A stretch of DNA of 64,000 nucleotides from Bacteroidales bacterium (GCA_017443465.1 JAFRXO010000067.1:9467-73466), one strand, 5' to 3'; numbered from the stretch's first letter, positions 12,081 through 54,815 are shown. Made by a program: numbers and translations. Notes: generated by a model from the letters alone, not told the origin.

Positions 12081-14084
12081 ATGAAAAACTTCTTCCTCTC
12101 CATCGCAGCAGCCGCTGCTGTCATAATGCTTGGTGCATGCAACAACTCCGGCATCCCCAAGGGCTTCACAGAAGAGCCTGACGACCCCTCCCGGGACACT
12201 GTCCTCACTTTTGATTATGGGAAAATGGCCGCTCTGGGCCACCCTCGCCTGTTCATGACGGCAGATGATTTCAAAGACCTGAAAGCCAGGATCAAAAAAC
12301 ATCCGGACCAGAACAAGCTCCTTGTCGAAGGAAACAGGATAGTGCTTGCACAGGCCGAGAGGTATGTCGCCCTTGATGAATCTATCGAGTATAAACTTGA
12401 CGCATCCGGAAAGAGGCTCCTCTCTCAATCCAGAAAGGCGTTGCAGCGTATATTCCCAATGTCATATGCCTACAAAATGACTGGAGACAGGAGGTATTTC
12501 GACGCCGTGGTAAAGAACCTCAGGGAGATATGCGCCCTGAAGGACTGGCACCCCAGCCATTATCTTGACACCGGGGAAATGGCATTGGCTGCGGCAATTG
12601 CATATGACTGGCTTTATTACGACTTGCCCTTGGACCTGAGGGAGGCCGCCCATAAGGCAATGGCCGAATTCGGCCTGAAGACCAGTATCGGCAAGAGTTA
12701 CCATCGTGCAATGGGGAACTGGAACCAGGTCTGCAACTGCGGCACAGTTGCAGCCGCGCTCGCAGTCTATGAAAAAGACAAGGCGATAAGCACTGAAATC
12801 ATAGAGACTGCCGTGAAGACGAATATGACCGCGCAGACGGCCATATATGCCCCGGACGGAAACTATGCCGAAGGCTATGGATATTGGAGCTACGGTACCG
12901 GATTCGAGACCATGCTCCTGAAACTGCTGGATACCGCATTCGGAAGCACGGCAGGTCTTGCAGACACCGAAGGCTTCATGAAGACCGGCGAATATATGCT
13001 TTTCATGGCGACGCCTACCGGCGGGAATTTTTCATATGCTGACGGCGGCAGTTCCCTTATAAGAGTCAATGAGGATAATTCCAGGCCAAGGATAGCCGGC
13101 GGTATGCCCGCGATGTGGTGGTTTGCAGCCCAGACCGGTGACGAATCCCTTCTTGTAAATGAGATCCGCTATCTTAACGCCGGCCTTTACGACAAGAGCA
13201 ACAGCAGGACCATTACGACCATTCCTATCTTCATCCGTGAAACCGGATTCTCCGGAGAATCCGGCAAAGTTCCCTCCAAGTCTTTCTGGAGCGGTAACGG
13301 AAAGGTCCCCGTAGCGATGGTGCACACAGGATGGAAGTTCGATGACACCGATAAGTATGTCGGAATCAAGGGCGGAGCCCCCAATGGAGGGCACGGACAT
13401 ATGGACGCTGGGTCCTTCGTATATGAATCTAACGGAGTCCGCTGGTCGGACGACCTCACTAGGCCGGATTATGCCCAGATGGAAAACGCCACATGGGCTG
13501 CCGGCGGGGATTTCTGGGACAACACCCAGAAGGGCCTTCGCTGGGACATCTTCAGGATGAACAACTTCGGCCACAGCACATTGTCTTTCATGAACAACGA
13601 CAAGAGCGTCAAGAACAAGATCCATGTTTCCGACCAGATCGTCTCCGGGAAAGCCTTGATTGAGGAAACATATGACAGCGCCGAAGGCTATGGTGCAAAA
13701 CTCGATATCACGGCTCCATATGCCGATGCTGTCGCTTCAGCCCACAGGACGATAAAGCTTGTAGGCGACCAGCTCTTCGTAATAGACGAAATAACCGCGA
13801 AACCGAGGATGGCTGCACAGATGCAGTGGAGGATGCTTACTCCTTCCGCTGTTGAGGTAAAGGCTGACGGCGAAGTGCTTACCCAGAAAGGCAAAACCCT
13901 GAACCTCAGTGCCGAGAGCTCCGACAAGAATGTAAAGGTGAAATATACGTCCTGGGAGCCGGTACGTCCGGCTGACTGGCCGAAACGCGACTGGGATCCC
14001 GAGAACCCCGGATACACCGTTGCCGGTTACACAGCAACCGTCCCCGCGGGCAAGACAGTGGTATTTACAACAGTGTTGAAATAG
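12081..14084 (+). CDS. Heparinase II/III-family polysaccharide lyase lipoprotein (PL35-like), paralog 1
   Basis: Lipobox LGAC; HPRLF, WHPSHYLDTGEM, NWNQVCN, EGYGYW, HGHMD motifs; start at ATG 12081. Confidence 0.85.
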   Translation: MKNFFLSIAAAAAVIMLGACNNSGIPKGFTEEPDDPSRDTVLTFDYGKMAALGHPRLFMTADDFKDLKARIKKHPDQNKLLVEGNRIVLAQAERYVALDESIEYKLDASGKRLLSQSRKALQRIFPMSYAYKMTGDRRYFDAVVKNLREICALKDWHPSHYLDTGEMALAAAIAYDWLYYDLPLDLREAAHKAMAEFGLKTSIGKSYHRAMGNWNQVCNCGTVAAALAVYEKDKAISTEIIETAVKTNMTAQTAIYAPDGNYAEGYGYWSYGTGFETMLLKLLDTAFGSTAGLADTEGFMKTGEYMLFMATPTGGNFSYADGGSSLIRVNEDNSRPRIAGGMPAMWWFAAQTGDESLLVNEIRYLNAGLYDKSNSRTITTIPIFIRETGFSGESGKVPSKSFWSGNGKVPVAMVHTGWKFDDTDKYVGIKGGAPNGGHGHMDAGSFVYESNGVRWSDDLTRPDYAQMENATWAAGGDFWDNTQKGLRWDIFRMNNFGHSTLSFMNNDKSVKNKIHVSDQIVSGKALIEETYDSAEGYGAKLDITAPYADAVASAHRTIKLVGDQLFVIDEITAKPRMAAQMQWRMLTPSAVEVKADGEVLTQKGKTLNLSAESSDKNVKVKYTSWEPVRPADWPKRDWDPENPGYTVAGYTATVPAGKTVVFTTVLK

Positions 14085-14087
14085 GAC

Positions 14088-14942
14088 ATGAAACTCATTG
14101 CCGACAGCGGGGCCACCACTACTGATTGGGCTGCGATTGACACTTCGGGAGAAGTAATCCGCTTCACCGGGGCCGGTTACAATCCGTATTATATCTCCGA
14201 GAAGGAAATAGGCGAGGACATCGCCGCCCATTTCCCCAAAGAGGTGGATCCGCTGGAAGTAACTGAGGTTGAATTCTATGGGGCCGGAGTCCGTCCTGCG
14301 CTCCAGGCCGGAATGAATGCCGCGCTCAAAGCGGCTTTCCCGAATGCCCGGGTCGATTCCCAGTCAGACACTCTCGGAGCCGCCAGGGCCCTCCTGGGTC
14401 GGGAAAAAGGCTTTGCCTCAATCCTCGGTACAGGAATGAACTCATGCATATGCGAAGGCGGTTTTATCGTCAGCAACATTATGTCCCTCGGCTACGCCCT
14501 CGGGGATGAGGGCAGCGGGGCATATATGGGCAAGCGCCTGGTGCGGGACTATCTTCGCGGCCAGATGCCGCCTGAGGCTCTCGCCCTGACCCGCGAAGCC
14601 ATTGTCCTGGAACCGGACGCGATCCTCTCCAGGATTTACAAGGAAGCCTTTCCAAACCGCTGGTGCGCAGGCTTCACCAAACTTATCGCCGGCCACCTGG
14701 ATATCCCTTATTTCAAACAACTTGTGGAGAGTTCTTTCCGTGACCTTTTCGAGAATGTGGTGACCCATTATCCCGATTACAGGTCATATGAATTCAATTG
14801 CTGCGGCTCTGTAGGATTCGTTTTCCGGGACATCCTCTCCAAGACCTGCGCCGGCTATGGAATGAAGCCCGGAACCTTCCTCAAGGAACCGTTGGACGGG
14901 CTCGTAGCCCAGACTCTGAAATACATGGATCAAAGAAACTGA
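14088..14942 (+). CDS. BadF/BadG-type ATPase, N-acetylglucosamine kinase-like
   Basis: LIADSGATTTDW, ILGTG.NS, LGDEGSG (ASKHA fold). Confidence 0.8.
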   Translation: MKLIADSGATTTDWAAIDTSGEVIRFTGAGYNPYYISEKEIGEDIAAHFPKEVDPLEVTEVEFYGAGVRPALQAGMNAALKAAFPNARVDSQSDTLGAARALLGREKGFASILGTGMNSCICEGGFIVSNIMSLGYALGDEGSGAYMGKRLVRDYLRGQMPPEALALTREAIVLEPDAILSRIYKEAFPNRWCAGFTKLIAGHLDIPYFKQLVESSFRDLFENVVTHYPDYRSYEFNCCGSVGFVFRDILSKTCAGYGMKPGTFLKEPLDGLVAQTLKYMDQRN

Positions 14943-14943
14943 C

Positions 14944-15990
14944 ATGGTACCTCATAAACTCGTCTCCAAGGCCCGTTTCGATTTCGAGGCCGGAGGCAGC
15001 CTGGAAGGCATAGACATAGTTTACCATACTTCTCCCGTCCAGTACGGCGAGATGGACGACGGTACCGGTCATGATCCGCGGAAGGTAGTCTGGATCTGCC
15101 ATGCCTTGACCGCCGATTCCGACGTTGAAGACTGGTGGCCTGAACTCACTGGCCCCGGCAAACTCTTCGACACCGACAGGTATTTCGTCATATGCGTTAA
15201 TATGATCGGATCCTGCTATGGATCCTCAGGGCCCGCCAGCATTAACCATAAGACCGGAAAGCCATATTATTTCGATTTCCCGAAAATCACCGTCAGGGAC
15301 ATAGTCCGCGGTCTGAACATGGTCAGGGAGAGCCTCGGGATAGAGCATATCGACCTTCTGATCGGGGCCAGCATCGGAGGATTCCAAGCCCTGGAGATGT
15401 CCATAATGTACCCTGACGTGGTGCGTAAGGCCGTCTTCATGGCAACACTCCCCAGGGTAACCCCATGGCTGACCGCATTCGAGGAATCACAGCGCATGGC
15501 CCTTGAGGCCGACCCGTCCTTCCGTGCCTGTGAGAGCCTCCAAGGTGGAAGGAAAGGTCTGGAGTGTGCCAGGTCCATAGCCCTCATCTCCTATAGATGC
15601 GATGACGGCTACAACAGGAAACAATACGAACTCGACGAGGATACCATTTTTCCGGGACGCGCATGTTCATATCAGCGTTACCAGGGAGAAAAACTGGCTC
15701 GTCGCTTCGATGCCTACTCCTACTGGTATCTCTCTTACTCAATTGACAGCCAGAACGTAGGCCGCGGCCGCGGAGGAATATGGAAGGCCCTGGGAATGAT
15801 CCGCGCCGACTCCATCGTGGTGGCTATAGACAGCGACATCATTTTCCCGGCAAAAGAGATGAAAGAAATGGCGGACGCCATTCCTGGCGCCCGCTATAAG
15901 GAATTCCGTTCGCATTTCGGTCATGATGGCTTCCTGATCGAATCCGAGGCCGTAACCGACATAGTCGGACCCATCCTCGAAGCCATGTAG
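14944..15990 (+). CDS. metX: Homoserine O-acetyltransferase
   Basis: CHALTADS, GSCYGSSGP, GASIGG nucleophile, FGHDGFL. Confidence 0.9.
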   Translation: MVPHKLVSKARFDFEAGGSLEGIDIVYHTSPVQYGEMDDGTGHDPRKVVWICHALTADSDVEDWWPELTGPGKLFDTDRYFVICVNMIGSCYGSSGPASINHKTGKPYYFDFPKITVRDIVRGLNMVRESLGIEHIDLLIGASIGGFQALEMSIMYPDVVRKAVFMATLPRVTPWLTAFEESQRMALEADPSFRACESLQGGRKGLECARSIALISYRCDDGYNRKQYELDEDTIFPGRACSYQRYQGEKLARRFDAYSYWYLSYSIDSQNVGRGRGGIWKALGMIRADSIVVAIDSDIIFPAKEMKEMADAIPGARYKEFRSHFGHDGFLIESEAVTDIVGPILEAM

Positions 15991-16001: not shown

Positions 16002-17960
16002 CTACTCGAGGGTAGTAGTGAAGGTCACGGTCTTTCCGGCAGGCACAGTCGCGGTGAATCCTGCAATCATGTAATCCGTGTTCTCTGGCTCATAATCGCG
16101 TTTGATCCAATCCGCGGGGCGTGTCGCATCCCATGTCGCATAGGTTAACCTTACATTCTTGTCGGAGCTCACTGTGCTGAGCTTCAAGTTCTTTCCCTTC
16201 TGGGTCAGGACCTCTCCGTCCGGATTGACAGTCACTGCATTCTGCCCGATCATCCTCCATTGGAATTTAGCCGGCATATTCTTTTTCGCGGTAATCTCGT
16301 CGCTGACTACCAGCTTGCCTCCGATTACCTTGAAAGTCCTGTTCGCAGATTCGACCGCGTCGGCATATGCGGGAGTTACGTCCAGGGTAGCCCCGTAGCC
16401 GTCAGGACTGTTATAAACCTGTTTGAACTGGGTCTTCCCGCTGACGATCTGGTCCGTGACATGCCTCTTGTCCTTTATGCTCTTATCTGAGTTGAGGAAT
16501 GCCAGGGTGCTGTGCCCGATATTGTTCATCCTGAAGAGGTCCCAGCGCAGGCCGTCCTGCGCGTTGTTCCAGAATCCGGAATTCCCGAGAGCATTCTCCA
16601 TTGTAGCATAATCGGGCCTGAAGAGGTCGTCAGACCAGCGGACTCCCTTGGATTCAAAGACGAATGAACCAGCATCCATATGTCCGTGGCCGCCGTTTGG
16701 CGCTCCGCCCTTGATTCCAAGATAGACATCGCTGTCGTCGAACTTCCAGCCAGTGTGCACTATGGTGACGGGGACTTTCCCATTGCCGCTCCAGACATAT
16801 GAAGAAGGCACTGCATCGGTTTCTCCCTTGAGCTCGAAGTCTTTCATGAAGACTGGTACAGCCGCAGCCAGGCGGTCTTTCGTCGAGGCATACATGCCGT
16901 TTTTCAGGTTGCGGATTTCGTTGACCAGGAGTGATTCGTCACCGGTCTCTCCGGCAAACCACCACATTGCGGGGAGGACTCTCTGTACCAGAGTCCCGCC
17001 GTCTGCATATGAGAACGATCCTCCGGAAGGAGCGGCCATGAACAGGATGTATCCTGCCGTCTTCATGAATCCTTCCACTTCGGTCAGTCCTGCTGTGCTC
17101 CCGAACGCTGTCTGCAGAAGCTTCATCAGGATGCTCTGGAAACCGGTCCCATAGTGCCAGTATCCATAGCCCTCGGCATAGTTCCCGTCCGGGGAATAGA
17201 TGCCCTGCATGGCCTTTTTGTTGCTTGCAACGGCGTCCTCGATTATATCGACACTTATGGCCTTGTCCTTCTCATATACCGCAAGCGCGGCTGCGATCAT
17301 GCCGGCGTTGCAGACCTGGTTCCAGTTGCCGACCGCGCGGTGATAGCTCTGCCCGACGCTCGTTTTCATGCCATATTCCACCAGGCATTTGTGGATCATC
17401 TCCCTAAGGTCCAGCGGAAGGTCGTAGTACAGCCAGTCATATGCTATAGCCACGGCGAGGGACATTTCCGCAGTGTCCAGGTAGTGGCTCGGGTGCCAGT
17501 CCTGGAATGCACACACGTCGCGCAGGTCCTTTATTGCTGCATCAAGGTATTTCTGCTCTCCGGTCATCTTGTAAGCATATGCAAGGGTGAAGAGCCTCTT
17601 CAGGGCCTTGCGGGACTGTGAGAGGAGACGCTTGCCTGCGGCATCGAGCTTATATTCAATTACTTCTCCGTTGGTGACATACTCATCGGCAAGGGCTATT
17701 ACCATGTCGTTTGCCTCAGAGAGGAGTTTGTGTTCCGCAGCCTTGCGGCCGACTTTCACCTTGAGATCCTTGAAGTCATCCGCAGTCATGAGGACCCTCG
17801 GGTGGCCCAGGGCGGCCATCTGTCCGTAGTCGAAAGTCTTCACCACATCCGGGGACTGGTCGTCAGGTTCTTCTACAAAACCCTTCGGCACACCGGAGTT
17901 GCAGGAAAGCAGCGCGAAGAGCGCCGTGGCGGTGGCAATGGAGAGAAGTATTTGTTTCAT
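16002..17960 (-). CDS. Heparinase II/III-family lyase lipoprotein (PL35-like), paralog 2
   Basis: Lipobox LLSC; same motifs as paralog 1. Confidence 0.85.
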   Translation of the reverse strand: MKQILLSIATATALFALLSCNSGVPKGFVEEPDDQSPDVVKTFDYGQMAALGHPRVLMTADDFKDLKVKVGRKAAEHKLLSEANDMVIALADEYVTNGEVIEYKLDAAGKRLLSQSRKALKRLFTLAYAYKMTGEQKYLDAAIKDLRDVCAFQDWHPSHYLDTAEMSLAVAIAYDWLYYDLPLDLREMIHKCLVEYGMKTSVGQSYHRAVGNWNQVCNAGMIAAALAVYEKDKAISVDIIEDAVASNKKAMQGIYSPDGNYAEGYGYWHYGTGFQSILMKLLQTAFGSTAGLTEVEGFMKTAGYILFMAAPSGGSFSYADGGTLVQRVLPAMWWFAGETGDESLLVNEIRNLKNGMYASTKDRLAAAVPVFMKDFELKGETDAVPSSYVWSGNGKVPVTIVHTGWKFDDSDVYLGIKGGAPNGGHGHMDAGSFVFESKGVRWSDDLFRPDYATMENALGNSGFWNNAQDGLRWDLFRMNNIGHSTLAFLNSDKSIKDKRHVTDQIVSGKTQFKQVYNSPDGYGATLDVTPAYADAVESANRTFKVIGGKLVVSDEITAKKNMPAKFQWRMIGQNAVTVNPDGEVLTQKGKNLKLSTVSSDKNVRLTYATWDATRPADWIKRDYEPENTDYMIAGFTATVPAGKTVTFTTTLE

Positions 17961-18023: not shown

Positions 18024-19982
18024 ATGAAAAAAACCCTGTTTTTCTTATTGTCTATTGCTGCAGCCGCTTTCATAATGAATTCCTGCGGCGGCAAAGCTAT
18101 CCAGGAAGAGCCCGATGATCCCGCAGCCGACATTGTCGGGACATTTGATTATGGGAAAATGGCTGAGCTGGGCCATCCCAGGCTCATGATGACCGCCCAG
18201 GACTTCAAGGACCTGAAGGTCAGACTTACAAAGAAGGCCAAGGACAATCCCGTCCTGGTCGAGGCCCATGAAATGGTAATGGGCCTGGCTGACCAGTATC
18301 TCGCCAATGAAGAGGTAGTAGAATACAAGCTCGACGCTTCCGGAAAGAGGCTCCTGGGCCCGGCGCGTGTCGCCCTCAGGCGCATCTTCGCGTTTGCATA
18401 TGCTTACAAGTTGACAGGGGACAAGAAGTATCTGGAGGCTGCGAGGGCTAATCTCGCACAGATATGCTCCTTCCCGGACTGGCATCCGAGCCATTATCTC
18501 GACACTGGCGAAATGACCCTCGCTGCAGCCATTGCATATGACTGGCTCTACGATGAGCTCACGCTTGAGGAAAGGGCCCTTGCTCACAAGTGCATGGTGG
18601 AATTCGGTATCAAGACCAGCGTCAACCAGGGTTATCTCCGCACCATCGGAAACTGGAACCAGGTCTGCAACGCCGGCATTTCTTCCGCTGCCATCGTCCT
18701 CTACGAAAAGGACAGGCAGATCTGCGCCGATGCCATAGAAAGGGCCGTGGAGTCCAACAGGAGGTCTATGAAAGGCATATATGCCCCGGACGGCAACTAT
18801 GCCGAGGGCTATGTCTACTGGGGTTACGGGACCGGTTTCCAGACCCTGTTCCTGAAGATGCTGGACACGGCATTCGGGGATGACGCAGGGCTCTCCCAGA
18901 CCGAGGGCTATCTCAAGTCCGGCGAGTATATGCTGTTCATGGCATCTCCGAATGGGGGAGACTTCTCATATGCCGACGGAGGCACTCCGACCGAGACAAT
19001 CAACGTAGGCATGTGGTGGTTCGCCGCAAAGCAGAAAGACGAGACATATGCCATCAATGAGCTCAGGCTTATGAGGGCCGGGAAATATACCCTTCAGGAG
19101 GGCATCCGCATGGCTCCGGCCGTGCCCTGCTTCATCAGGGACTGTGGTTTCAAGGGCGAAGGCAAGGTGCGTCCCGCCAAGGACATATGGTATGGCCAGG
19201 GACACGTCCCCGTAGCCATTGTGCACACCGGCTGGGATTTCGATGCCAATGACGTTTACCTCGGAATCAAGGGCGGTGCTGCGAACGGCGGCCACGGACA
19301 TATGGATTCCGGTTCATTCGTATTCGAGGCCGAAGGGGTTCGCTGGTCCGAGGACCTCCAGCGTCCGAATTATTCCACGATGGAGAATGCCGTGGGTAAT
19401 GGTGAGTTCTGGGGCGGCACCCAGACTGCCCGCCGCTGGGACATCATGAGGATGAACAACCTGGGCCACAGCACCCTGACCTTCCTCAATCCGGACGGCA
19501 GCATAAGCAAGACCCATCCTACGGACCATAATGTCCGCGGTGCGGCCAAAATGGTGGAAACATATGACAGCAAGGAGTGTATGGGCGCCAAGCTCGACAT
19601 GACAGATGCCGTTTCGGACCAGGTGGCTTCCGCTATAAGGACCATCCAGTTGATCGACGGGAAGACCCTCAAGATCACCGATGAAATCACTGCCAAGCCC
19701 CGCAAGGATGCCAAGATGCAGTGGAGGATGCTTACCACGGCCAAGGTTGAGGCCAAGGCCGACGGAGAGGTCCTGAGCCTGAATGGCAAGACCAGGACCC
19801 TGAAGACCGCTTCTTCCGATCCGAGGGTCAAGCCGGCCTATGAAGTCTTCTCCATGAAGCGTCCATCCAATTGGGTTCCGCTTCCGGAAGAACCTGATGA
19901 TTCGAAATACGATGTGGCCGGTTTCTCGGCTACCATCCCGGCCGGAAAGACCGTTACATTCACGACTGTACTTTCACAGTAA
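18024..19982 (+). CDS. Heparinase II/III-family lyase lipoprotein (PL35-like), paralog 3
   Basis: Lipobox MNSC; WHPSHYLDTGEM, NWNQVCN, EGYVYW, HGHMD. Confidence 0.85.
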   Translation: MKKTLFFLLSIAAAAFIMNSCGGKAIQEEPDDPAADIVGTFDYGKMAELGHPRLMMTAQDFKDLKVRLTKKAKDNPVLVEAHEMVMGLADQYLANEEVVEYKLDASGKRLLGPARVALRRIFAFAYAYKLTGDKKYLEAARANLAQICSFPDWHPSHYLDTGEMTLAAAIAYDWLYDELTLEERALAHKCMVEFGIKTSVNQGYLRTIGNWNQVCNAGISSAAIVLYEKDRQICADAIERAVESNRRSMKGIYAPDGNYAEGYVYWGYGTGFQTLFLKMLDTAFGDDAGLSQTEGYLKSGEYMLFMASPNGGDFSYADGGTPTETINVGMWWFAAKQKDETYAINELRLMRAGKYTLQEGIRMAPAVPCFIRDCGFKGEGKVRPAKDIWYGQGHVPVAIVHTGWDFDANDVYLGIKGGAANGGHGHMDSGSFVFEAEGVRWSEDLQRPNYSTMENAVGNGEFWGGTQTARRWDIMRMNNLGHSTLTFLNPDGSISKTHPTDHNVRGAAKMVETYDSKECMGAKLDMTDAVSDQVASAIRTIQLIDGKTLKITDEITAKPRKDAKMQWRMLTTAKVEAKADGEVLSLNGKTRTLKTASSDPRVKPAYEVFSMKRPSNWVPLPEEPDDSKYDVAGFSATIPAGKTVTFTTVLSQ

Positions 19983-21634: not shown

Positions 21635-22381
21635 ATGGGATTATTAGATGGCAAAACCGCGCTCATCACAGGAGCTGCGAGAGGAATTGGAAAGGCGATC
21701 GCCCTCAAGTTCGCCTCGGAAGGTGCTGACATAGCGTTCACCGACCTCGTGATAGACGAAAACGGACAGAAGACCGTAGCTGAAATCGAAGCCTTCGGAC
21801 ACAAGGTCAAGGCATATGCATCAAATGCGGCTAATTTCGATGAGACCCATCAGGTGGTTGCCGACGTACTTGCGGAGTTCGGACATATAGACATCCTGGT
21901 CAACAATGCCGGCATTACCAAGGACGGGCTGATGCTCCGCATGAGCGAAGCCCAGTGGGATGCCGTCCTCACCGTCAACCTCAAATCCGCCTTCAACTTC
22001 ACCCACGCCATCACCCCGGTGATGATGCGCCAGAGGGGAGGAAGCATTGTCAATATGTCCTCTGTAGTAGGCGTTTCCGGTAATGCCGGGCAGAGCAACT
22101 ACTCGGCTTCCAAGGCCGGTCTGATCGGTCTGGCCAAGTCCGTTGCCAAGGAAATGGGTCCCAAGGGCATCAGGGCCAACTGCATCGCCCCGGGTTTCAT
22201 AATCTCTGACATGACCGCAAAGCTCCCCGAAGAGGTCCGCAACCAGTGGGTTCAGCAGATTCCGCTTCGCCGCGGCGGCACTCCGGAAGACATCGCCAAT
22301 GTCGCCCTCTTCCTTGCAAGTGACCTTTCCTCATATGTTTCCGGACAGGTCATCAATGTCTGCGGCGCAATGAACACCTAG
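21635..22381 (+). CDS. fabG: 3-oxoacyl-ACP reductase
   Basis: TGAARGIG, NNAGITKD, YSASKAG. Confidence 0.93.
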   Translation: MGLLDGKTALITGAARGIGKAIALKFASEGADIAFTDLVIDENGQKTVAEIEAFGHKVKAYASNAANFDETHQVVADVLAEFGHIDILVNNAGITKDGLMLRMSEAQWDAVLTVNLKSAFNFTHAITPVMMRQRGGSIVNMSSVVGVSGNAGQSNYSASKAGLIGLAKSVAKEMGPKGIRANCIAPGFIISDMTAKLPEEVRNQWVQQIPLRRGGTPEDIANVALFLASDLSSYVSGQVINVCGAMNT

Positions 22382-22932: not shown

Positions 22933-24293
22933 TTATTTCAGTGGGATCAGCAACAGATCCTTGTAGTACGCTTCGCTGTACTCCAGCTGAACCAGAATCC
23001 TTCCTGAGGTGACGTTGATGTCGGTGGCTTCGTTCACCAGTTCACCGTTGAGGTAATGCCAGGATTTGTCACCCAAGGTGATGAATTCCATGGTATTCCA
23101 TTCATTTATCGGATTCTCGGTACCTCCGCTGCGGAGTACGCGGAAATTCCTTCCGTGCGGTTCTACGGTATGTCCCGTGGTCTTTCCGGTAGCTCTCCGA
23201 CGAACCAATAGTCACAAAAACGGTCCTTCATTCCCTGGCATTCCACGCATATGGGCCAAAAGCCGTCTTCGGGGCCTACATGGTAAAGAATGCCGCCATC
23301 CCATTCGACTCCCGGGGAGGCGGTGGTATATGTCCCGAAGCGCATCCGTACGCGGAAATAATAATTCCCATATGCCTCGCGCGTCACTGCATAACCGAGT
23401 CCCTCTCCGCTCATATGCATCATCCCGTCTTCCACTACAATGTCGCCTGCGGGGTCTGACGAAGCACTCATATGCCTGATTCCCACGGCTTTCGTTCCCT
23501 TGAAGAGAGGGGCTGAGACGGTCTCGTAGCCGGTGAGCTGCGGGTCGAAGAATCCTCCGTCTTTCTTGAATATGGTGAAATTGGTGAAGTCTTTCCCGTT
23601 GAAGAGGTCGATGGCCTTGCAGGTCTTCGCACCGTCTTTAAGGGCAGTGAATTCTGCACGGCTTGGATGATCCTTCACTACCTGGGGCACATCCACTTCT
23701 ATTCCCTTTTCCGCTTTCCAGCTCTCGTTAACTCTGACGGTGTCGCAGCGGTCGGTGTAAAGGATTCCGTCTAGGTGGTCGCACTCGTGCTGGAAGATCC
23801 GGGCGACATATCCTGAGACCGTCTCCTGTTTTTGTTTCCTGGTTTCCGGATCGACGTAGCTTACTTTGGCGAACTCGCTTCTGGGCACATTCCCTCTGTA
23901 AGGCACTATGCTGAGGCAGCCTTCCGGCCCGACGTTGACCGGTCCCCACAGCGAATCCACATGCACGTTGGGATAAACTTCATATGGCTCTCCCGGTTTG
24001 TCCATCCGGCACACTACAATGATCCTGCGGGAGTCGCCAACCTGGGGTCCTGCTATCCCGACTCCACCCTGCTCGGGGGATGTGACGGTGGCTACCATGT
24101 CTGCGGCAAGCTTGGAGAAGGATGCGCTTCGAAGTTCCCGGGCAGTGAAATCCCGGCAGGGAGTCCGGAGGACCTGCAATTCCCCTTCATCGAAAACGGA
24201 ATAAACATGAAGTACTTCAGGTGCCCTCCTGCAGCCCGCAAGCGCTAATGCTATGGCGGTAAAAGCGATGATCTTTTTCAATTTGATTTTCAT
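22933..24293 (-). pseudogene. def: Lipoprotein peptide deformylase fused to DUF1080 domain; frameshift near 23193-23198
   Basis: Lipobox LAGC; GVGIAGPQVG, EGCLS, QHECDH; then IDLFNGKDF..., YFRVRMRF, GGILYH, ECQ. The domain continues in another frame (EWNTMEF..LNGELVN..GRILVQLE). Confidence 0.75.
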
Positions 24294-24299
24294 ATGCTG

Positions 24300-24375
24300 C
24301 AAATATAAGTTTCTTCGTGGGCATATCGGTGCTTTCCTGAAAGTTTTTTTTTTAAGCAAAATCAGGCTACATTTG
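24300..24375. promoter_or_regulatory. Divergent -7 boxes for def fusion and beta-barrel gene
   Basis: TATATTTG on minus (24300-07), TACATTTG on plus (24368-75). Confidence 0.55.
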
Positions 24376-24408
24376 TGCGGGATTGTGACGGGTGTCCCAT
24401 TAAATGCT

Positions 24409-24996
24409 ATGGTTAAAAAGCTGCTTTTTTGCATCATATTGATGGTATTTTTCGGCGGAGTGCTTCGCGCACAGGGGCCGCACGAACTGCGTATCGGAAT
24501 TTCCGGTCCGGCAGCGGGGACCCGGCATGTTTTTGATTTCGCCTCCCGCTTCTTTTACGCGGGAACGGATCTCTATTGTTTGTATGAAGAGTCTTTGCAA
24601 CTGGACTCCGCACCGGTATTCAGTGTCGATTACTCATATACGCTGAAGGGATGGCTGAGACCGGGCTTGGAATTTTCCCTGGGTTTCATGCGGGTAAATA
24701 GTATCCCGCCCCGTGCTTTTCCAGACAGAGAAATCCAGTCCTGTTCCCAACAGTATTATTCGCTGTTACCCTTCGTAAATTTGATGGCACTGGATAAGCC
24801 GCATTTCAAGATCTATGGTAAAATCGGTGTGGGAGGGCAATTAACTGCGGGAGAATGGAAAGGGAAGAGCTTTTATCCTGCCTGGCAGATTGCCCCGCTT
24901 GGACTCCAATGGGGAGGAGAAAGGATCTTCGGCTTTTTCGAGTTAGGTTTCGGTGATGTCTATATTGCCCGTGGAGGAGTGGGTTTCAGATGGTAA
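24409..24996 (+). CDS. Outer-membrane beta-barrel protein
   Basis: Signal peptide MVKKLLFCIILMVFFGGVLRA; amphipathic strands; C-terminal GVGFRW. Confidence 0.7.
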   Translation: MVKKLLFCIILMVFFGGVLRAQGPHELRIGISGPAAGTRHVFDFASRFFYAGTDLYCLYEESLQLDSAPVFSVDYSYTLKGWLRPGLEFSLGFMRVNSIPPRAFPDREIQSCSQQYYSLLPFVNLMALDKPHFKIYGKIGVGGQLTAGEWKGKSFYPAWQIAPLGLQWGGERIFGFFELGFGDVYIARGGVGFRW

Positions 24997-30199: not shown

Positions 30200-30228
30200 C
30201 CCTGTCGCAAATTAACAGACCGGGCGTG

Positions 30229-30269
30229 ATAAAAGGGGGCCGGCTCAAAGCGAGCCGGCCCCCTTTTAT
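30229..30269. terminator. Bidirectional intrinsic terminator
   Basis: ataaaagggggccggctc / gagccggcccccttttat perfect 18-bp stem between convergent genes. Confidence 0.85.
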
Positions 30270-30287
30270 TGGCTTCTGCCTCGGGAA

Positions 30288-31640: not shown

Positions 31641-31683
31641 AGTTTTGTGGTTTATATGGTTCGTGTATTTGAAGTCGTAATGA

Positions 31684-31691
31684 CAAATGTA
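31684..31691 (-). promoter_or_regulatory. -7 promoter box for Gfo/Idh/MocA gene
   Basis: TACATTTG on minus strand. Confidence 0.5.
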
Positions 31692-33602: not shown

Positions 33603-33605
33603 ATG

Positions 33606-35525: not shown

Positions 35526-35528
35526 GGT

Positions 35529-37445: not shown

Positions 37446-37482
37446 CGCTTTTTGTAAATATATGATTGATAATATGATAATG

Positions 37483-38355: not shown

Positions 38356-38357
38356 GG

Positions 38358-39176: not shown

Positions 39177-39219
39177 ATGAATGTGCTTCCTGTGTTATTG
39201 TAATAATAATTTCACCTTA

Positions 39220-39248
39220 CCAAGATAGCTATTTTTTCGTTATATTTG
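39220..39248. promoter_or_regulatory. Back-to-back divergent promoter
   Basis: ccaagatagctattttttcgtTATATTTG between divergent genes. Confidence 0.5.
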
Positions 39249-39277
39249 ACAATCACTAATTACGATAAGCACTATTA

Positions 39278-40708: not shown

Positions 40709-40734
40709 GACAGTAACCGGTAAAGTTTTAGCAT

Positions 40735-46574: not shown

Positions 46575-49208
46575 ATGAAATCGATCGTATGTCTTGCTGC
46601 GGCAATGCTCTCTGTTGCCGTTTCCTGTTCGAAGTCCTCCCTCGTCCCCGTCAACCTGAGGGTCGAATCCATGGAAGAGCCCAACTGCATAGATGTTACC
46701 TCTCCCAGGCTTACGTGGGTTGACAATCCGGTCTCGGACAAGGTCTGCAACGAGAGCCAAAGCGCTTACAGGATTGTAGTGGCATCGTCACTCAAAGACC
46801 TGCGCTCAGGGAAGAATCTGCTCTGGGACACCGGAAAGACAGATTCCCCGTGCGCTTTGAGAATAAACTACGGCGGGAAGCCGCTTTCCAGCGGGCAGGA
46901 CTGCTGGTGGAAAGTAATGGTCTGGGACAGCAAGGGAAAGGCATCTGCCTGGAGCCGTCCGGGTCATTGGACCATGGGAATGATGGATCCAGGGCAGTGG
47001 AAAGCATCCTGGATCGGGGCTCCTTACCAGAGAGAAGAGTCCGACACTGTGGACCAGCCTGCACCCATGTTCCGGAAAGAGTTCAATGTCAGCAAGAAAG
47101 TAAAGTCAGCCAAGGCCTTCGTCTGTGGCCTGGGCTTCTTCGAAATGTTCCTCAACGGCCAGAGGATAGGGGATGACCGCCTGGTTCCGAACCTCACCGG
47201 ATACACCTCCAGGAAAGACCTTGACAAGGTGTTCATCGCACTCAAGGATCATTTCAGGGGTTACAGGGTGACCTATCTGGTGTACGATGTCACAAAAGAC
47301 CTGAAAGTCGGGGAGAATGCCGCCGGAGTCATAGTCGGAGCCGGCTTCTACAACACCCACTGGGAGAGATGGACAAAGGCTTTCGGGTCCCAGAGGCTGC
47401 TTTGCCAGATAATGATAGAATATGAGGACGGCGAAAAGGAGACTGTGGTCTCGGATACTTCCTGGAAATCAGCTCCTTCCGCCATTACATTGAATGACAT
47501 TTATCACGGGGAGACATATGACGCCAGGCTCGAACATCCGGGCTGGACGACAGTGGGATATGATGACTCCTCCTGGGCGAACGCGGTTCCTCGAGTCGCT
47601 CCGGAAGGAAAACTCCGTGCTTCTGACGCACCTCTCGACAGGATCACCGGGACCCTGGAACCCAAATCGCTTACCAAGAATCCGGATGGAAGTTACGAAG
47701 TGGATTTCGGGACCGAGATTTCCGGCTGGATCCATTTCAAGGACATGACCGGAAAGGCGGGAGACACCCTCAGGGTCAAATTCATATGTGAATCCAAGGA
47801 AGGGGACCAGCTTTACGTGTTCAAAGACTCCAATCCGGTTTCATATGCTCCAAGGTTCACCTGGTTCGTCTTCAGCAAAGCCAGGATAACCGGCATCGAA
47901 ACGCTCTCGGAGAAGAATCTCGTCGCGGAAGCAGTCAACAACGACGTCAGGATAGATTCCCGCTTCGAGACGTCGGTCGGCCTGCTTGACAGCATCAATA
48001 TCATATGGAGACGTTCCCAGATGGACAACATGCACGGAGGCATAGCCAGCGACTGTCCGCACAGGGAGCGTTCCCCGTACACCGGCGACGGGCAGGTCTC
48101 CTGTGCTACAGTAATGTCCAATTTCGATGCGGAGGCCTTCTACCGCAAATGGATCAGGGATATGAATGACACCCAGGACGTGGAGACCGGCTATGTTCCG
48201 AATTCTGCTCCATGGCAGCCGGGATGCGGCGGCGGAGTAGGCTGGGGTGCGGCCATGGATATCATCCCGTGGGAGCACTACAGGCATTATGCTGACGTGG
48301 AAATCCTGAAGGATAATTATTTCGCGATGAAGGAGCAGGTCCGTCATATGGAAGGCTGGATCACTCCCGACGGGACGATGTTCCAGAAGATGACGGATGT
48401 CATTAGTGGAAGCTGGCAGAAGTGGTTCAATCTCGGGGACTGGGCCCCTGCATATGGTCTTCCTTCAGATGAACTGGTCCACACTTTCTACCTGTGGTAT
48501 TGCGCTGACATAGTGGCCAAGGCCTCCAGGGTTGTCGGAACCAGAGAGGACACAGACTATTACAGGGGACTTGCCGAACGGACTAGGGACGCCTTCATGA
48601 AGAAGTTCTACGATCCCGAGGCCAAGTCATTCGGAGAATATGGATCCAATGTCCTGGCGCTCAAGATGGGGGTCCCGGATGAAATCCGTGCCGATGTAGT
48701 TGAGACCCTCCGGAATGAGATAGGGGTAAAATACAACGGCCATCTCAACACCGGTATTTTCGGGACGCGCTTCCTCTTCGAGGTCCTGGCGGATAACGGC
48801 CTCAACGACCTGGCCTTCAAGGTTATCACCCAGAGGGATTTCCCGAGCTTCGGGCATTGGCTGGCCCAGGGCGCCACTACTACCTGGGAAATGTGGGACG
48901 GGAGCAACTCCCGCAACCACCCCATGTTCGGCGGAGGACTCATATGGTTCTATGAAAAACTTGCCGGGGTACAGATAGATGAAAAGGAGCCCGGATACAG
49001 GCATATCATAGTAGAGCCGCTTCCGGCAGCCGGACTGGAGAGGGTTGTGTATTCCAAGGAAACACCTTATGGTACAGTTGTTTCCGAAGTCAGGAATACT
49101 CCTGACGGCCTTTCCCTTGACCTTACGGTACCGGTCGGAAGCTATGCGACGGTCACCCTCCCCGGGAAGGAAAGCAAGACTGTAGGACAGGGCAAATGGC
49201 ATTTTTAA
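46575..49208 (+). CDS. GH78 alpha-L-rhamnosidase-family lipoprotein
   Basis: Lipobox AVSC; LWDTGK, GE.YDAR, SDCPHRER..YTGDG, TTTWE.W, NHPMFGG. Confidence 0.9.
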   Translation: MKSIVCLAAAMLSVAVSCSKSSLVPVNLRVESMEEPNCIDVTSPRLTWVDNPVSDKVCNESQSAYRIVVASSLKDLRSGKNLLWDTGKTDSPCALRINYGGKPLSSGQDCWWKVMVWDSKGKASAWSRPGHWTMGMMDPGQWKASWIGAPYQREESDTVDQPAPMFRKEFNVSKKVKSAKAFVCGLGFFEMFLNGQRIGDDRLVPNLTGYTSRKDLDKVFIALKDHFRGYRVTYLVYDVTKDLKVGENAAGVIVGAGFYNTHWERWTKAFGSQRLLCQIMIEYEDGEKETVVSDTSWKSAPSAITLNDIYHGETYDARLEHPGWTTVGYDDSSWANAVPRVAPEGKLRASDAPLDRITGTLEPKSLTKNPDGSYEVDFGTEISGWIHFKDMTGKAGDTLRVKFICESKEGDQLYVFKDSNPVSYAPRFTWFVFSKARITGIETLSEKNLVAEAVNNDVRIDSRFETSVGLLDSINIIWRRSQMDNMHGGIASDCPHRERSPYTGDGQVSCATVMSNFDAEAFYRKWIRDMNDTQDVETGYVPNSAPWQPGCGGGVGWGAAMDIIPWEHYRHYADVEILKDNYFAMKEQVRHMEGWITPDGTMFQKMTDVISGSWQKWFNLGDWAPAYGLPSDELVHTFYLWYCADIVAKASRVVGTREDTDYYRGLAERTRDAFMKKFYDPEAKSFGEYGSNVLALKMGVPDEIRADVVETLRNEIGVKYNGHLNTGIFGTRFLFEVLADNGLNDLAFKVITQRDFPSFGHWLAQGATTTWEMWDGSNSRNHPMFGGGLIWFYEKLAGVQIDEKEPGYRHIIVEPLPAAGLERVVYSKETPYGTVVSEVRNTPDGLSLDLTVPVGSYATVTLPGKESKTVGQGKWHF

Positions 49209-51394: not shown

Positions 51395-51400
51395 GAAGGA

Positions 51401-52420: not shown

Positions 52421-52430
52421 GATAGTTATT

Positions 52431-52474
52431 ATAGTCTTTCTGCAAAAATATAATACTTTTGTGTAAAAGACTAT
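52431..52474. promoter_or_regulatory. Symmetric divergent promoter region
   Basis: TATTTTTG (minus, 52443-50), TACTTTTG (plus, 52454-61), flanked by ATAGTCTTT/AAAGACTAT inverted repeat. Confidence 0.6.
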
Positions 52475-52478
52475 CGCT

Positions 52479-54815
52479 ATGAGAATAATACGGATCATTG
52501 CCGCGGTGGCGCTGTTTTTCGTGGCATCGACACTTTCCGCCCAGCAGAGAAAGACATCCGAGGCTGTGTGGACATGGCACGAAGGCGTGGCCATCCCCAT
52601 GCCACCCATGGAACACCCCAGGCTCTACATCCGTCCATCCGGCCTGGAGGACCTGAAAGCAAGGGTCGAGACCCCGGAAGGGAAGAAGATAATATCCAGG
52701 CTTACAGCTCTTTCCGTCGACAGGACTCCTGAAGAAGAGGCGTCCGAGACTGACCATGGATTCCGGTATTATTTCAAGATGCGAGGGCTGACCAGCAAGG
52801 TCCAGCTCCAGGCCCTGGACTATCTCCTTACCGGGAACAGGAAGGAGGCGCGCTCAGCCATCACATCCCTTTTGGATTCGCTCCGCAATTGTTCGTTCGG
52901 CACGAAGCAGGACCTTTCCCGTGCCAGCGGGGTCATGCTCATGGTCGGTGCGATAGTATATGACTGGTGCTATCCGGAATTTACCGCCGCGGAAAGGGAG
53001 GCATATGTAAAAGAGTTCATCAGGATAGCGGGCCGGATGGAGTGCGGATATCCTCCTAAGGGGGATGAGACCGTAGCGGGACACCTTTGCGAATGGATGG
53101 TGCTGAGGGATATGCTCTCGGCAGGCATCGCGGTGTACGATGAGTATCCCGATATGTACAATCATGCGGCGAAGATGATCTATGAGAGCTATATCCCTGT
53201 GAGGCGGTATTTCTATGCAGGGCACAATTACCATCAGGGAACAAGCTATGCAAATGTGCGTCTGACCAACGATTTCCTCTCGCTGTGGATCCTTGACAGG
53301 ATGGGCGCTGGGCAGATATATGGCGACGACATGAAGTTCATGATGTACGACCTCATCTACCGGCTCAGGCCTGACGGGCAGGTGCTCCCGGCTGGAGACG
53401 TGAACCATAACAGACGCTCGCCGAATACATTCCAGAATCCTATGATGCTGGCGTCCAGCTATTTTCATGATCCTTACCTGGCCGCCCAGTTCGAGAGGAA
53501 TCCTGTTGTGGAGCCTCATTGCCTTATCTTTGAACTGCTATGGAGGGATTTCTCCCTGAAGGGAAAGGCTCCGGATGACCTGCCCCTGACTATGTACAGC
53601 GGCACTCCGTACGGCTGGATGGTGGCCCGTACCGGGTGGGACGACAGCAGCGTGATCGCCGAGATGAAGGTGAATGAGAAGTTCCCCGGCAACCATCAGC
53701 ATGCCGACGGAGGGGCCTTCCAGATTTACTACAAGGGTCCTCTTGCGATTGACTCCGGTTTCTACCAGGGACTGAAAGGAGGATACAACAGCCAGAACAA
53801 CAAGAACTACACTAAGCGTACGATAGCCCACAATTCGCTTTTGGTTTACGATCCGGATGAAGTGTTCCCGATCTGGAACTATGGCGGAGAGGACAAGACG
53901 GAATTCGCGGCGAATGACGGCGGCCAGAGGCTTCCCGGGGAGAAATGGAGGACATGCCGGACATATGAGGAGCTTATGACTGATGAATTCGCAGTGGGCC
54001 AGGTACTTGCGCACGGTTTCGGACCCGATCCGAAGGTTCCGGACTACACTGTCCTGAAAGGGGACATCACCAGGGCATACTCTTCCAAAGTCAAGGAGGT
54101 GAAGAGATCGTTCGTGTTCCTGAATCTCCATGATGGGAAAATCCCGGCTGCTATGATAGTATTTGACAAGGTGGTTTCATCCAATCCCGCTTTCAAGAAA
54201 TTCTGGCTGCTCCACAGCATTGAGGAGCCCCAGGCCGACGGGAGTTCTTTTACCGTCAGGAGGACGAAGAACGGGGATTCAGGCCGTCTTCAGTGCGACG
54301 TGCTTCTGCCTGCCGCGGACAATCTGAAACTCTCAAAGGTAGGAGGGGAAGGGCATGAATATGAAGTGTTCGGAGTGAATTATCCGGATGTGCAGAAGGC
54401 TCCAGACGATGCAGGCGAGTGCGGTAGCTGGAGGGTGGAGCTTTCTCCCCTGAAACCCGCGGCGGAGGATGTTTTCCTCAATGTGATGCAGATTGCCGGA
54501 CAGGGAGATGATAAACTTCCTTCAGCGAAATATTTCAAGGGCTCCGGTTCCGGGAAGTCCGGACCGTCCGGTCTGGCCGGCGCCCTGGTGGCCGGCAGGG
54601 CTGTGACATTCAGTCTCGACGGAGGGATGCTTTCGCAGGCCGCTTTCGTGCTTCCGAAGGGAGCTCCGAGGTATAAGGTCCTGGTGACCGACCTGGAATA
54701 CGGGACATATGTAGTCAAGACCAGCGCGGGCAGTTCTACGGTGGAGGTTTCCGGCGCGGATCATGCGGCTTGGTTCGAAGCCGCTCCCGGTAAAGTGTCC
54801 ATATGGCGCATTTAG
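52479..54815 (+). CDS. hepB: Heparinase II (PL21)
   Basis: HPRLY, GHxxEWM, HQGTSYANVR, NHQHADGGAFQIYYKGPLAIDSG, HNSLLVYDP match the Pedobacter heparinase II catalytic His/Tyr/His contexts. Confidence 0.88.
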   Translation: MRIIRIIAAVALFFVASTLSAQQRKTSEAVWTWHEGVAIPMPPMEHPRLYIRPSGLEDLKARVETPEGKKIISRLTALSVDRTPEEEASETDHGFRYYFKMRGLTSKVQLQALDYLLTGNRKEARSAITSLLDSLRNCSFGTKQDLSRASGVMLMVGAIVYDWCYPEFTAAEREAYVKEFIRIAGRMECGYPPKGDETVAGHLCEWMVLRDMLSAGIAVYDEYPDMYNHAAKMIYESYIPVRRYFYAGHNYHQGTSYANVRLTNDFLSLWILDRMGAGQIYGDDMKFMMYDLIYRLRPDGQVLPAGDVNHNRRSPNTFQNPMMLASSYFHDPYLAAQFERNPVVEPHCLIFELLWRDFSLKGKAPDDLPLTMYSGTPYGWMVARTGWDDSSVIAEMKVNEKFPGNHQHADGGAFQIYYKGPLAIDSGFYQGLKGGYNSQNNKNYTKRTIAHNSLLVYDPDEVFPIWNYGGEDKTEFAANDGGQRLPGEKWRTCRTYEELMTDEFAVGQVLAHGFGPDPKVPDYTVLKGDITRAYSSKVKEVKRSFVFLNLHDGKIPAAMIVFDKVVSSNPAFKKFWLLHSIEEPQADGSSFTVRRTKNGDSGRLQCDVLLPAADNLKLSKVGGEGHEYEVFGVNYPDVQKAPDDAGECGSWRVELSPLKPAAEDVFLNVMQIAGQGDDKLPSAKYFKGSGSGKSGPSGLAGALVAGRAVTFSLDGGMLSQAAFVLPKGAPRYKVLVTDLEYGTYVVKTSAGSSTVEVSGADHAAWFEAAPGKVSIWRI

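Follow-up and report, generated by a model that had tools for sequence, protein, structure and literature searches.

Seven predicted heparinase II/III-superfamily lyases are encoded within 43 kb of one Bacteroidales contig, apart from any SusC/SusD polysaccharide utilization locus (PUL). This arrangement raises the questions of whether the proteins are functional enzymes and which polysaccharides they degrade. The window, which is the entire stretch of DNA analyzed here (64,000 nucleotides), originates from an uncultured Bacteroidales of the ruminant (bovine, sheep) gut with a small genome (2.65 Mb).

Lyases Encoded in the Window

The seven lyase reading frames of the preliminary description were recovered at the positions given in Table 1, and all of them match Pfam PF07940 (Hepar_II_III_C) above the cut-off. 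Their division into three subfamilies (three PL35, three PL33, and one PL21) agrees with the PDB sequence search. Export signals are present on all seven proteins, and the catalytic and metal-binding residues are intact in each. To judge by these features, the seven lyases look like catalytically competent, exported β-elimination enzymes with a predicted periplasmic or lipid-anchored location. Each would cleave at a 4-linked uronic acid via the Asn/Tyr/His apparatus common to the superfamily, and the copies arose in part by local tandem duplication.

Table 1. Coordinates of the window features
Feature	Position	Strand	Length (aa)	Assignment and remarks
PL35 lyase 1, lipoprotein	12081-14084	+	667	PF07940; lipobox LGAC
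BadF-type amino-sugar (GlcNAc/MurNAc) kinase homologue	14088-14942	+		3 nt past PL35 lyase 1
PL35 lyase 2, lipoprotein	16002-17960	-	652	PF07940; lipobox LLSC
PL35 lyase 3, lipoprotein	18024-19982	+	652	PF07940; lipobox MNSC
TAT-exported Gfo/Idh/MocA oxidoreductase	30288-31640	-		Pfam GFO_IDH_MocA; TAT signal
PL33_1 lyase A	31692-33602	-	636	signal peptidase I signal; matches 8R73, BT4410
PL33_1 lyase B	33606-35525	-	639	66% identical to A, 73% to C
PL33_1 lyase C	35529-37445	-	638	PF07940
HAD hydrolase	37483-38355	-		Pfam; directly upstream of PL33 triplet
Secreted GDPD phosphodiesterase	38358-39176	-		Pfam; upstream of HAD gene
GH78 α-L-rhamnosidase, lipoprotein	46575-49208	+		four GH78 domains, E 1e-73
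PL21 heparinase II homologue	52479-54815	+	778	ordinary signal peptide; matches 2FUQ
GH28, ROK sugar kinase, MFS sugar transporter run	58965-62408	-		Pfam; NCBIfam

PL35 Lipoproteins

PL35 lyase 1, which begins 98 nt past rplQ, is 56–65% identical to its two window paralogues; lyase 2 is 65% identical to lyase 1, and lyase 3, divergent from lyase 2, is 56% identical to it. In the PDB sequence search, lyase 1 matched the PL35 enzymes GAGase II from Spirosoma fluviale (8KHV, E 7.5e-104) and the Bacteroides intestinalis enzyme GAGase VII (8KHW, E 2.6e-84) as well as a PL35 chondroitinase (9O3Q, E 8e-65), and the similarity to the characterized PL35 lyases extends over the full length, as expected for CAZy family PL35. 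The key residues of this family, in GAGase II numbering, are the catalytic Asn192, Tyr246, and His401 and the Mn2+ ligands His403, Asp405, Asp421, and His457 (PMC12088678). All seven are kept in the three window proteins. These differ from the PL35 GAGases in being lipoproteins with glycine in place of the accessory, second carboxylate-binding residue, Asn191, and in belonging to a set of 16 paralogues whose genome is nearly devoid of sulfatases. The catalytic triad and metal ligands are kept across this set, with D421S in the contig C69 protein as the sole change of a Mn ligand. In the PL35 tree, the window proteins group together as a single clade, with a pair from contig C5 and a protein from C47 as sisters.

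The Pfam scan gave no match for the kinase homologue that follows lyase 1. Its homologues at 45–50% identity are named N-acetylglucosamine kinase, and PF01869 is found on some of these. In L094, the neighbors of the kinase homologue are a gene for a MurQ-like SIS protein, one for an MFS transporter, and GH20 genes.

PL33 Triplet

All three triplet members carry ordinary signal peptides. Residues 18-636 of lyase A match 8R73 (E 7e-230) and the BT4410 structures 8R6Z and 8R70 (~1e-220); lyase A is 52% identical to BT4410 (BtPL33-HA), a PL33_1 hyaluronan lyase from Bacteroides thetaiotaomicron with a similar signal peptide, and the similarity is that of PL33 subfamily 1. In a tree of 84 PL33_1 sequences, the window copies group inside this subfamily. 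Lyases B and C are sisters, and the clade of A, B, C, and C47_99238 stands next to L001. The catalytic Asn238, Tyr291, and His444 as well as Tyr470 and Phe475 are invariant across PL33 (PMC11848413). These five residues, of which Tyr470 and Phe475 are the processivity residues, are present in the three window proteins and in all 14 genome copies. Lyase A also keeps R103, H154, L174, W239, and W242.

The substrate-binding positions depart from this pattern. The hydrophobic platform of PL33_1, located at the +2/+1 subsites of BT4410, consists of Trp224, Trp239, Leu174, and Trp242; the last three reportedly do not vary within PL33_1, and PL33_2 has Val at position 242. Trp239 and Leu174 are kept in the triplet. 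Trp224 is replaced in all three copies (by Asp in A, Glu in B, and Asn in C) and Trp242 is replaced by Arg in the middle copy, B, alone. In a PL33 quadruplet on contig C56, R103 is replaced by Gln. Among 83 homologues, drawn from 80 other species, none varies at positions 103, 224, and 242, and the latter two positions are Trp. Thus, the triplet proteins are PL33 by homology, yet their sequences are off the subsite signature.

Previously, BT4410 was described as a periplasmic lyase that is not encoded in a PUL but is co-regulated with PUL-CS/DS/HA (PMC6994673). The window PL33 genes likewise stand outside any SusC/D PUL, and since BT4410 is a precedent, this location is not new. BT4410, however, is a single copy co-regulated with a GAG PUL having sulfatases and GH88, whereas in the window three copies (of 14 in the genome) stand in tandem, with phosphoesterases and an oxidoreductase as neighbors. 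Gaps of 2 and 37 nt separate the GDPD gene from the HAD gene and the HAD gene from the triplet, and this spacing suggests a GDPD-HAD-PL33 operon. The oxidoreductase gene, 51 nt past lyase A, ends the same-strand run that holds the triplet.

PL21 Heparinase II Homologue

The PL21 protein aligns end to end with heparinase II of Pedobacter heparinus (2FUQ, 3E80). Query residues 27-772 correspond to chain residues 4-742 of 2FUQ (E 3e-260), so that all three HepII domains are covered, and the identity to true heparinase II exceeds 50%; the Pfam HepII_C model scores just below its cut-off (25.9 vs 26.1 bits). His202, Tyr257, His406, the neutralizer Glu205, and the Zn ligands His408, Asp425, and His451 are identical in both proteins, and the catalytic and metal residues are kept in all three PL21 paralogues of the genome. 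Unlike genes of heparin/HS utilization loci, the PL21 gene adjoins those for a GH43-like protein, an EamA transporter, and a DUF362/ferredoxin protein.

Genome-Wide Expansion of the Lyases

The "dispersed, expanded arsenal" of the preliminary description proved to be an understatement. At least 40 heparinase II/III-superfamily lyases (39 PF07940 matches and one more found by Pfam) are encoded on 16 contigs, and about 8–12 of them lie next to SusC/D genes. The paralogues comprise 16 PL35, 14 PL33 (about 15 with PL33-like), 4 PL12-like, and 3 PL21 proteins (about 5 with PL21-like) in addition to singletons. Asn/Tyr/His and the metal ligands are kept in all 15 PL33(-like) paralogues. With seven PL8 enzymes, the total is ~47 lyases. 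By comparison, 24 congeners have 0–7 superfamily lyases per whole genome, against seven within 43 kb here; named comparison genomes, including B. cellulosilyticus and B. xylanisolvens, have 5–7, and the maximum among 400 sampled Bacteroidota was 14 candidates. The window lyases make up one part of an expansion that is specific to this species.

The copy number would be an artifact if a chimeric bin or a mis-assembly had pooled several organisms, or if the copies were decaying pseudogenes. The genome, a metagenome-assembled genome (MAG), consists of 81 contigs, its contamination is estimated at 2.9%, and its 14 PL33 copies belong to five or more distinct lineages in the family tree. Against this, all 39 matches are open frames of 609–1229 aa that have no internal stops and keep their catalytic residues. 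The seven window copies share one 80-kb contig (C34) with ribosomal-protein, secY, and rpoA genes, and the GC content is uniform. The rplQ-PL35-kinase junction was found again in a related, independent metagenome contig (L093), and numerous independent DNA runs of bovine and sheep origin contain the PL33 triplet. An artifact is therefore highly improbable. PL33 and PL35 gene fragments also occur at 95–100% identity in ruminant-gut RNA library assemblies, these being low-depth assembled contigs that may include DNA carry-over.

PUL Partners and Sulfatases

Scanning of the other plausible window ORFs (≥150 aa) with Pfam and NCBIfam gave no SusC/D, GH88/105, sulfatase, HTCS, or ECF sigma factor, as had been claimed. 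No adjacent SusC/SusD-like pair accompanies the window lyases, and the co-located sulfatases, GH88, and HTCS of a GAG PUL (PUL-CS/DS/HA or PUL-Hep type) are absent from the window. The comparison with Bacteroides PULs thus stands for the partner genes, but the organism itself is not a Bacteroides. The rest of the 80-kb contig has no SusC/D, GH88/105, HTCS, or ECF gene and a single sulfatase, 2.7 kb beyond the window end; PF07980 (SusD) has no match on this contig and 13 elsewhere in the genome.

The genome has three true GH88 genes (contigs C39, C61, and C62) and only two sulfatases with the formylglycine motif S-x-P-x-R, one of them being that beyond the window end. Strong PF07470 matches are termed GH105-like from Pfam score patterns and homologue names, not from a dedicated model. 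KduI, which usually isomerizes the unsaturated uronate product, was searched for in the genome and not found. At 96% completeness and with 81 contigs, the MAG may lack sulfatase, SusC/D, or KduI genes that the organism has.

The location outside SusC/SusD loci holds for the window, but paralogues elsewhere sit within such loci, as in the order SusC-SusD-GH78-PL33x4 on C56. Other arrangements are GH78-GH2-PL35 (C30), GH105-like and GH106 followed by PL12x3 (C40), GH88-PL35 (C39), and PL35x2-PL8-LacI-MFS (C5). Rhamnosidases therefore adjoin lyases on C56, C30, and C40, and GH78 is also present in the window.

Proposed Function and Substrates

Non-sulfated, partly rhamnose-containing polymers are the most likely main substrates because the genome has only two formylglycine sulfatases and recurrent rhamnosidase and GH105-like neighbors of the lyases; the adjacency to rhamnosidases could also come from mixed loci without a shared substrate. 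On balance, we favor a model in which an expanded set of exported, competent lyases acts mainly on such uronic-acid glycans. Polymers or oligosaccharides would enter the periplasm via a few SusC/D systems encoded elsewhere. Periplasmic lyases, diverged in their sugar-binding subsites, would then cut different glucuronate-containing polysaccharides, and GH88/GH105-type hydrolases, rhamnosidases, and other glycosidases would complete the breakdown. Candidate substrates are polymers resembling hyaluronan, heparosan, or chondroitin and, from microbes, capsules, EPS, and wall polymers of the gellan or xanthan type. PL33 enzymes degrade HA, heparosan, CS, and gellan. The gellan pathway of Bacillus sp. 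GL1 combines a glucuronate lyase, an unsaturated glucuronyl hydrolase, and an α-L-rhamnosidase, which resembles the combination of lyase, GH88/GH105, and GH78/GH106 found here. ObPL33-gellan, a gellan lyase from Opitutaceae, is a PL33_2 enzyme, unlike the window PL33 proteins, which belong to subfamily 1, and we know of no gellan-like substrate in the rumen.

Of the substrates proposed initially, non-sulfated microbial or other uronic-acid glycans fit the genome better and host GAGs worse. Foraging on HA, CS/DS, and HS shed by the ruminant gut epithelium, with the copies as redundant isozymes differing only in sulfation tolerance, would agree with the fact that PL12, PL21, PL33, PL35, and PL8 are all best known as GAG lyases; all characterized PL21, PL12, and PL35 enzymes and most PL33 enzymes act on animal GAGs. 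The PL21 homologue, with its high identity to heparinase II, has the His202 needed for iduronate, HA degradation needs no sulfatase, and true GH88 enzymes, the sulfatase near the window, and the GlcNAc-kinase-like gene after PL35 lyase 1 would also fit. Two formylglycine sulfatases and three GH88 enzymes are few beside ~47 lyases, however, and GAGs have no rhamnose to explain the recurrent GH78/GH106 and GH105-like neighbors. The PL33 subsite residues replaced here are, moreover, invariant in GAG-active relatives. Since the genome has almost no sulfatases, the main targets are probably other than sulfated animal glycans, and host GAG foraging is rather unlikely.

Acidic plant glycans of the diet, such as rhamnose-capped glucuronate in arabinogalactan proteins (AGP) and gums or pectic rhamnogalacturonans, would suit the bovine and sheep gut habitat and the complement of GH78 (6), GH106 (5–6), GH28 (5), GH105-like, GH2, GH43-like, and GH29 enzymes, several of which adjoin lyases. 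If this were correct, these lyase families would extend to plant substrates. However, plant polysaccharides are not among the substrates of any characterized PL12, PL21, PL33, or PL35 enzyme, and the glucuronate-binding +1 subsite residues of PL33 are mostly conserved. Pectin and AGP are handled by other lyase families (PL1/4/9/10/11/26/27/42). Plant glycans are accordingly a poor prospect as the main substrates, even less likely than host GAGs.

A further but doubtful proposal is that the organism is a specialist scavenger of the anionic envelope polymers of other microbes (capsules, EPS, and wall polymers of the teichuronic or teichoic type), with PL33/PL35 specificities that include non-GAG substrates. 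The PL33 triplet, with its remodeled +2/-1 subsite, would cut a GlcA-containing, phosphodiester-linked or rhamnose-decorated bacterial polymer, apparently being co-transcribed with the secreted GDPD, the HAD phosphatase, and the TAT-exported sugar oxidoreductase.

The definition of PL33 and PL35 as families is recent, and their few characterized members act on animal GAGs and, in one case, on gellan. Here they account for ~2% of the genes, in a genome without the sulfatase complement that sulfated GAGs would require and with changes at otherwise invariant substrate-contact residues. If the favored model holds, the paralogues would provide naturally occurring specificity variants, ready for use in the search for new PL33/PL35 substrates, and the turnover of non-sulfated acidic, possibly microbial, polysaccharides would be an unrecognized rumen/hindgut niche. 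Bacteroidota lyase repertoires can be arranged largely outside SusC/D loci, so that most of this arsenal would escape pipelines that base their predictions on PULs.

Other Window Genes

A functional connection of the GH28-ROK-MFS run with the lyases is uncertain. The Gfo/Idh/MocA protein scores 110 bits against the BT_2158 glycoside 3-dehydrogenase family, a weak match given the cut-off of 750. The run holding the PL33 triplet faces three metallophosphoesterase genes.

Identity of the Seven Lyases

The preliminary description had placed seven heparinase II/III-superfamily lyases of three subfamilies in the window, and all seven proteins with a heparinase II/III C-terminal domain were recovered there by open reading frame listing and Pfam search. 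Sequence searches against the PDB assign them to three CAZy families (Table). PL35 lyase 1 matches GAGase II (8KHV) with an E value of 7.5e-104, and the three PL35 copies are 56–65% identical to one another. The three PL33 copies share 52% identity with BT4410, the PL33_1 hyaluronan lyase of Bacteroides thetaiotaomicron. Each group was aligned with its reference structure using the residue numbering of the mechanism papers (PMC11848413, PMC12088678), and all of the catalytic and metal-binding residues are kept in seven of the seven proteins. The signals of the PL35 enzymes are of the lipoprotein type, and those of the PL33 and PL21 enzymes are of the signal peptidase I type. The seven proteins are very probably active, exported lyases, with activity, location, and regulation all read from the sequence of a fragmented MAG.

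Table. Coordinates of lyases and other features (window positions unless a contig or locus is named)
Feature	Coordinates	Assignment or match
PL35 lyase 1	12081-14084	PL35, PDB sequence search
PL35 lyase 2	16002-17960	PL35, PDB sequence search
PL35 lyase 3	18024-19982	PL35, PDB sequence search
PL33 copy A	31692-33602	PL33 subfamily 1; BT4410 and relatives, E ~1e-220 to 1e-230
PL33 copy B	33606-35525	PL33 subfamily 1; BT4410 and relatives, E ~1e-220 to 1e-230
PL33 copy C	35529-37445	PL33 subfamily 1; BT4410 and relatives, E ~1e-220 to 1e-230
Heparinase II	52479-54815	PL21; 2FUQ, E 3e-260
Alpha/beta hydrolase	14944-15990	MetX-like
SDR	21635-22381	FabG favored by NCBIfam
Deformylase fusion	23163-24437	
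PfkB kinase	29291-30199	unspecific sugar kinase favored by NCBIfam
Metallophosphoesterase pair	39278-42162	TAT signals
Lipoprotein	56924-58957	
True GH88	C61:53150-54325	PDB 3WIW and 1VD5
True GH88	C62:49537-50712	PDB 3WIW and 1VD5
True GH88	C39:48343-49515	PDB 3WIW and 1VD5
PUL with four PL33	C56:175-15315	canonical PUL
Four-copy PL33 array, other species	L055:4130-11935	water-buffalo cecum MAG

Gene Neighborhood

As the preliminary description held, Pfam and NCBIfam scans of the window detected no SusC/D, GH88/GH105, sulfatase, HTCS, or ECF sigma factor, and SusD gave no match across the entire 80-kb contig. The absence of sulfatases holds within the window, but one of the two formylglycine sulfatases of the genome is located 2.7 kb beyond its end. 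The glycoside hydrolases present are a GH78, a GH43-like protein, and a GH28. BT4410 is periplasmic and encoded apart from the PUL with which it is co-regulated (PMC6994673); the window lyases likewise lie outside a PUL, and with this precedent their location is not in itself new.

The ribosomal protein/secY/rpoA/rplQ cluster stops 98 nt ahead of the first PL35 gene, and housekeeping genes (MetX-like protein, AdoHcy hydrolase, FabG, aminopeptidase P) are scattered through the window. A homologue of BadF-type amino-sugar kinases starts 3 nt past PL35 lyase 1. The rplQ–PL35–kinase order is repeated in an independent metagenome contig; no RNA contig bridging the junction of rplQ and PL35 lyase 1, as would indicate their co-transcription, was found. 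The end of the kinase gene is overlapped by that of the MetX-like alpha/beta hydrolase, which scores under both NCBIfam MetX cutoffs (305 vs 500 bits and 292 vs 331 bits). This hydrolase was not counted as a carbohydrate esterase, being MetX-like and without a signal peptide.

The PL33 genes belong to a same-strand run of GDPD, HAD, three PL33, and TAT-exported Gfo/Idh/MocA oxidoreductase genes with gaps of 2, 37, 3, 3, and 51 nt, a spacing that suggests a single operon. A scan of positions 30000–40000 for sigma-70 promoters and terminators gave results near the shuffled expectation and, as it does not represent Bacteroidota promoters, was set aside. The phosphoesterase block of the window comprises a HAD protein, two GDPD proteins, three metallophosphoesterases (TAT signals in two), an Exo_endo_phos protein, and a GlpT/UhpC-type antiporter. 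The pair with TAT signals, of 476 and 475 aa, adjoin each other, are near-identical at the N-terminus, and are followed by a purple-acid-phosphatase-like protein, the Exo_endo_phos lipoprotein, two GDPD proteins, and the antiporter. Taken together, these phosphoester-hydrolysis genes make up a dense locus abutting the PL33 triplet.

Lyases across the Genome and Its Relatives

The assembly (2.65 Mb, 96% complete) contains 39 open frames matching PF07940, and one more, beside a singleton, was found by Pfam. Clustering and PDB searches group them into 16 PL35, 14 PL33 plus one distant PL33-like, four PL12 (heparinase III)-like, and three PL21 plus two distant PL21-like copies. Beyond this superfamily, seven PL8 lyases are encoded on contigs C5, C14, C17, C38, C40, and C61; one of them, on C5, comes directly after two PL35 genes and is followed by a LacI-type regulator and an MFS transporter. 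Tandem arrays are frequent, with a PL33 quadruplet on C56, a PL33 and a PL35 triplet on C51, a PL12-like triplet on C40, and a PL35 pair on C5. A position outside PULs is the rule for this genome, with only about 8–12 of the 40 copies close to any of its 13 SusD genes.

The lyase count is far higher than in relatives. PF07940 matches number 0–7 in 24 species of the same genus, six in Bacteroides cellulosilyticus, and seven in B. xylanisolvens. Since the phylum-wide PF07940 search scored no more than six candidates for each genome, the wider comparison uses first-look candidates rather than matches; in an even sample of 400 Bacteroidota these reach at most 14, in a genome of 6.2 Mb. PL33 is present in only 24 of 151 congeners, the best being 50% identical to a window copy.

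A PL33 tree built from 98 sequences spreads the 14 copies of this genome over at least five lineages. One supported clade unites the window triplet with a C47 copy, and the nearest outside relative, from another Bacteroidales MAG, is 61% identical. The PL35 trio likewise groups as one clade, whose sisters are the C5 pair and C47. The arsenal is therefore a mix of several lineages, old or acquired, and of copies made by local tandem duplication. That these duplications are not recent is shown by the pairwise identities inside the window arrays, which are 56–73%.

The window stretch was found across many bovine and sheep gut metagenomes. RNA-library assemblies from ruminant gut hold PL33 and PL35 gene fragments at 95–100% identity, a weak sign that these genes are transcribed there.

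Substitutions in the PL33 Subsites

The specificity of PL33 has been attributed to the subsites that surround a conserved +1 site for glucuronate, and members are reported to act on hyaluronan, heparosan, chondroitin sulfate, and gellan of bacterial origin (PMC11848413). In the window triplet, the hydrophobic-platform residue Trp224 has given way to Asp, Glu, or Asn, and the middle copy also has Arg for Trp242. The four C56 copies all have Gln in place of Arg103, the residue that contacts O2/O3 of glucuronate; only three of 114 PL33_1 sequences are reported to lack this Arg (PMC11848413). None of the three positions varies among 83 homologues from 80 other species, a set made up of the 80 loci closest to the query rather than the whole family. 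The 11 homologues from the same genus include eight canonical ones and three with a change at 224, one of the latter also having Gln103. The sole tandem array among the 80 other-species loci, four copies in a water-buffalo cecum MAG with only five PF07940 matches in total, retains the canonical Trp224, Trp242, and Arg103. The four tandem PL33 of C56 are mutually 81–90% identical.

Accessory Enzymes and Candidate Substrates

Plain degradation of host GAGs is argued against as the role of these lyases by the accessory enzymes. Alkaline-phosphatase-fold "sulfatase" matches number only six in the genome, with the formylglycine motif in only two, and true GH88 proteins are limited to three (3WIW, E 3.5e-88). 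GH88 counts made with Pfam Glyco_hydro_88 (PF07470) are misleading, since true GH88 proteins score lowest (18–42 bits vs 190–340 bits for GH105-like proteins). The two were told apart by PDB search, phmmer within the genome, and homologue names, the NCBIfam scan failing to separate them; the stronger PF07470 matches appear, by this indirect assignment, to be a separate, GH105-like group. Rhamnosidases and GH105-like genes repeatedly adjoin lyases, which also speaks against host GAGs: SusC-SusD-GH78 precedes the four PL33 on C56, GH78-GH2 precedes PL35 on C30, GH105-like and GH106 genes precede three PL12 on C40, a GH105-like gene precedes PL12 on C51, and the window itself carries one GH78. 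The altered PL33 subsites (224 and 242 in the window, 103 on C56) point the same way.

What the evidence supports best is an expanded lyase set, periplasmic or lipid-anchored, with conserved chemistry and, as predicted from sequence, diversified substrate recognition. Such a set would serve the use of mostly non-sulfated glucuronate polysaccharides, some with rhamnose. Possible sources are microbial capsule, EPS, or wall polymers, unsulfated host hyaluronan or heparosan-like material, and plant acidic glycans, with the microbial or non-sulfated reading ranked first. The phosphoesterase neighbors and the amino-sugar kinase fit this first-ranked reading without proving it.

The unsaturated product of such lyases, of which there are about 47 in this genome, normally enters the KduI/KduD route. 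KduI (PF04962) was not found in the 96%-complete genome; the controls, B. thetaiotaomicron and E. coli, each gave a match. Reading the PfkB kinase as a KDG kinase, or the SDR as KduD, was rejected as evidence for the pathway, since NCBIfam favors other assignments (Table).

Two further window proteins were noted. A 677-aa lipoprotein directly after a DUF362/4Fe-4S protein matches nothing in Pfam or NCBIfam and lacks paralogues in the genome. The other joins a peptide deformylase domain to one of the DUF1080 (3-keto-disaccharide hydrolase-like) type, as identified by Pfam.
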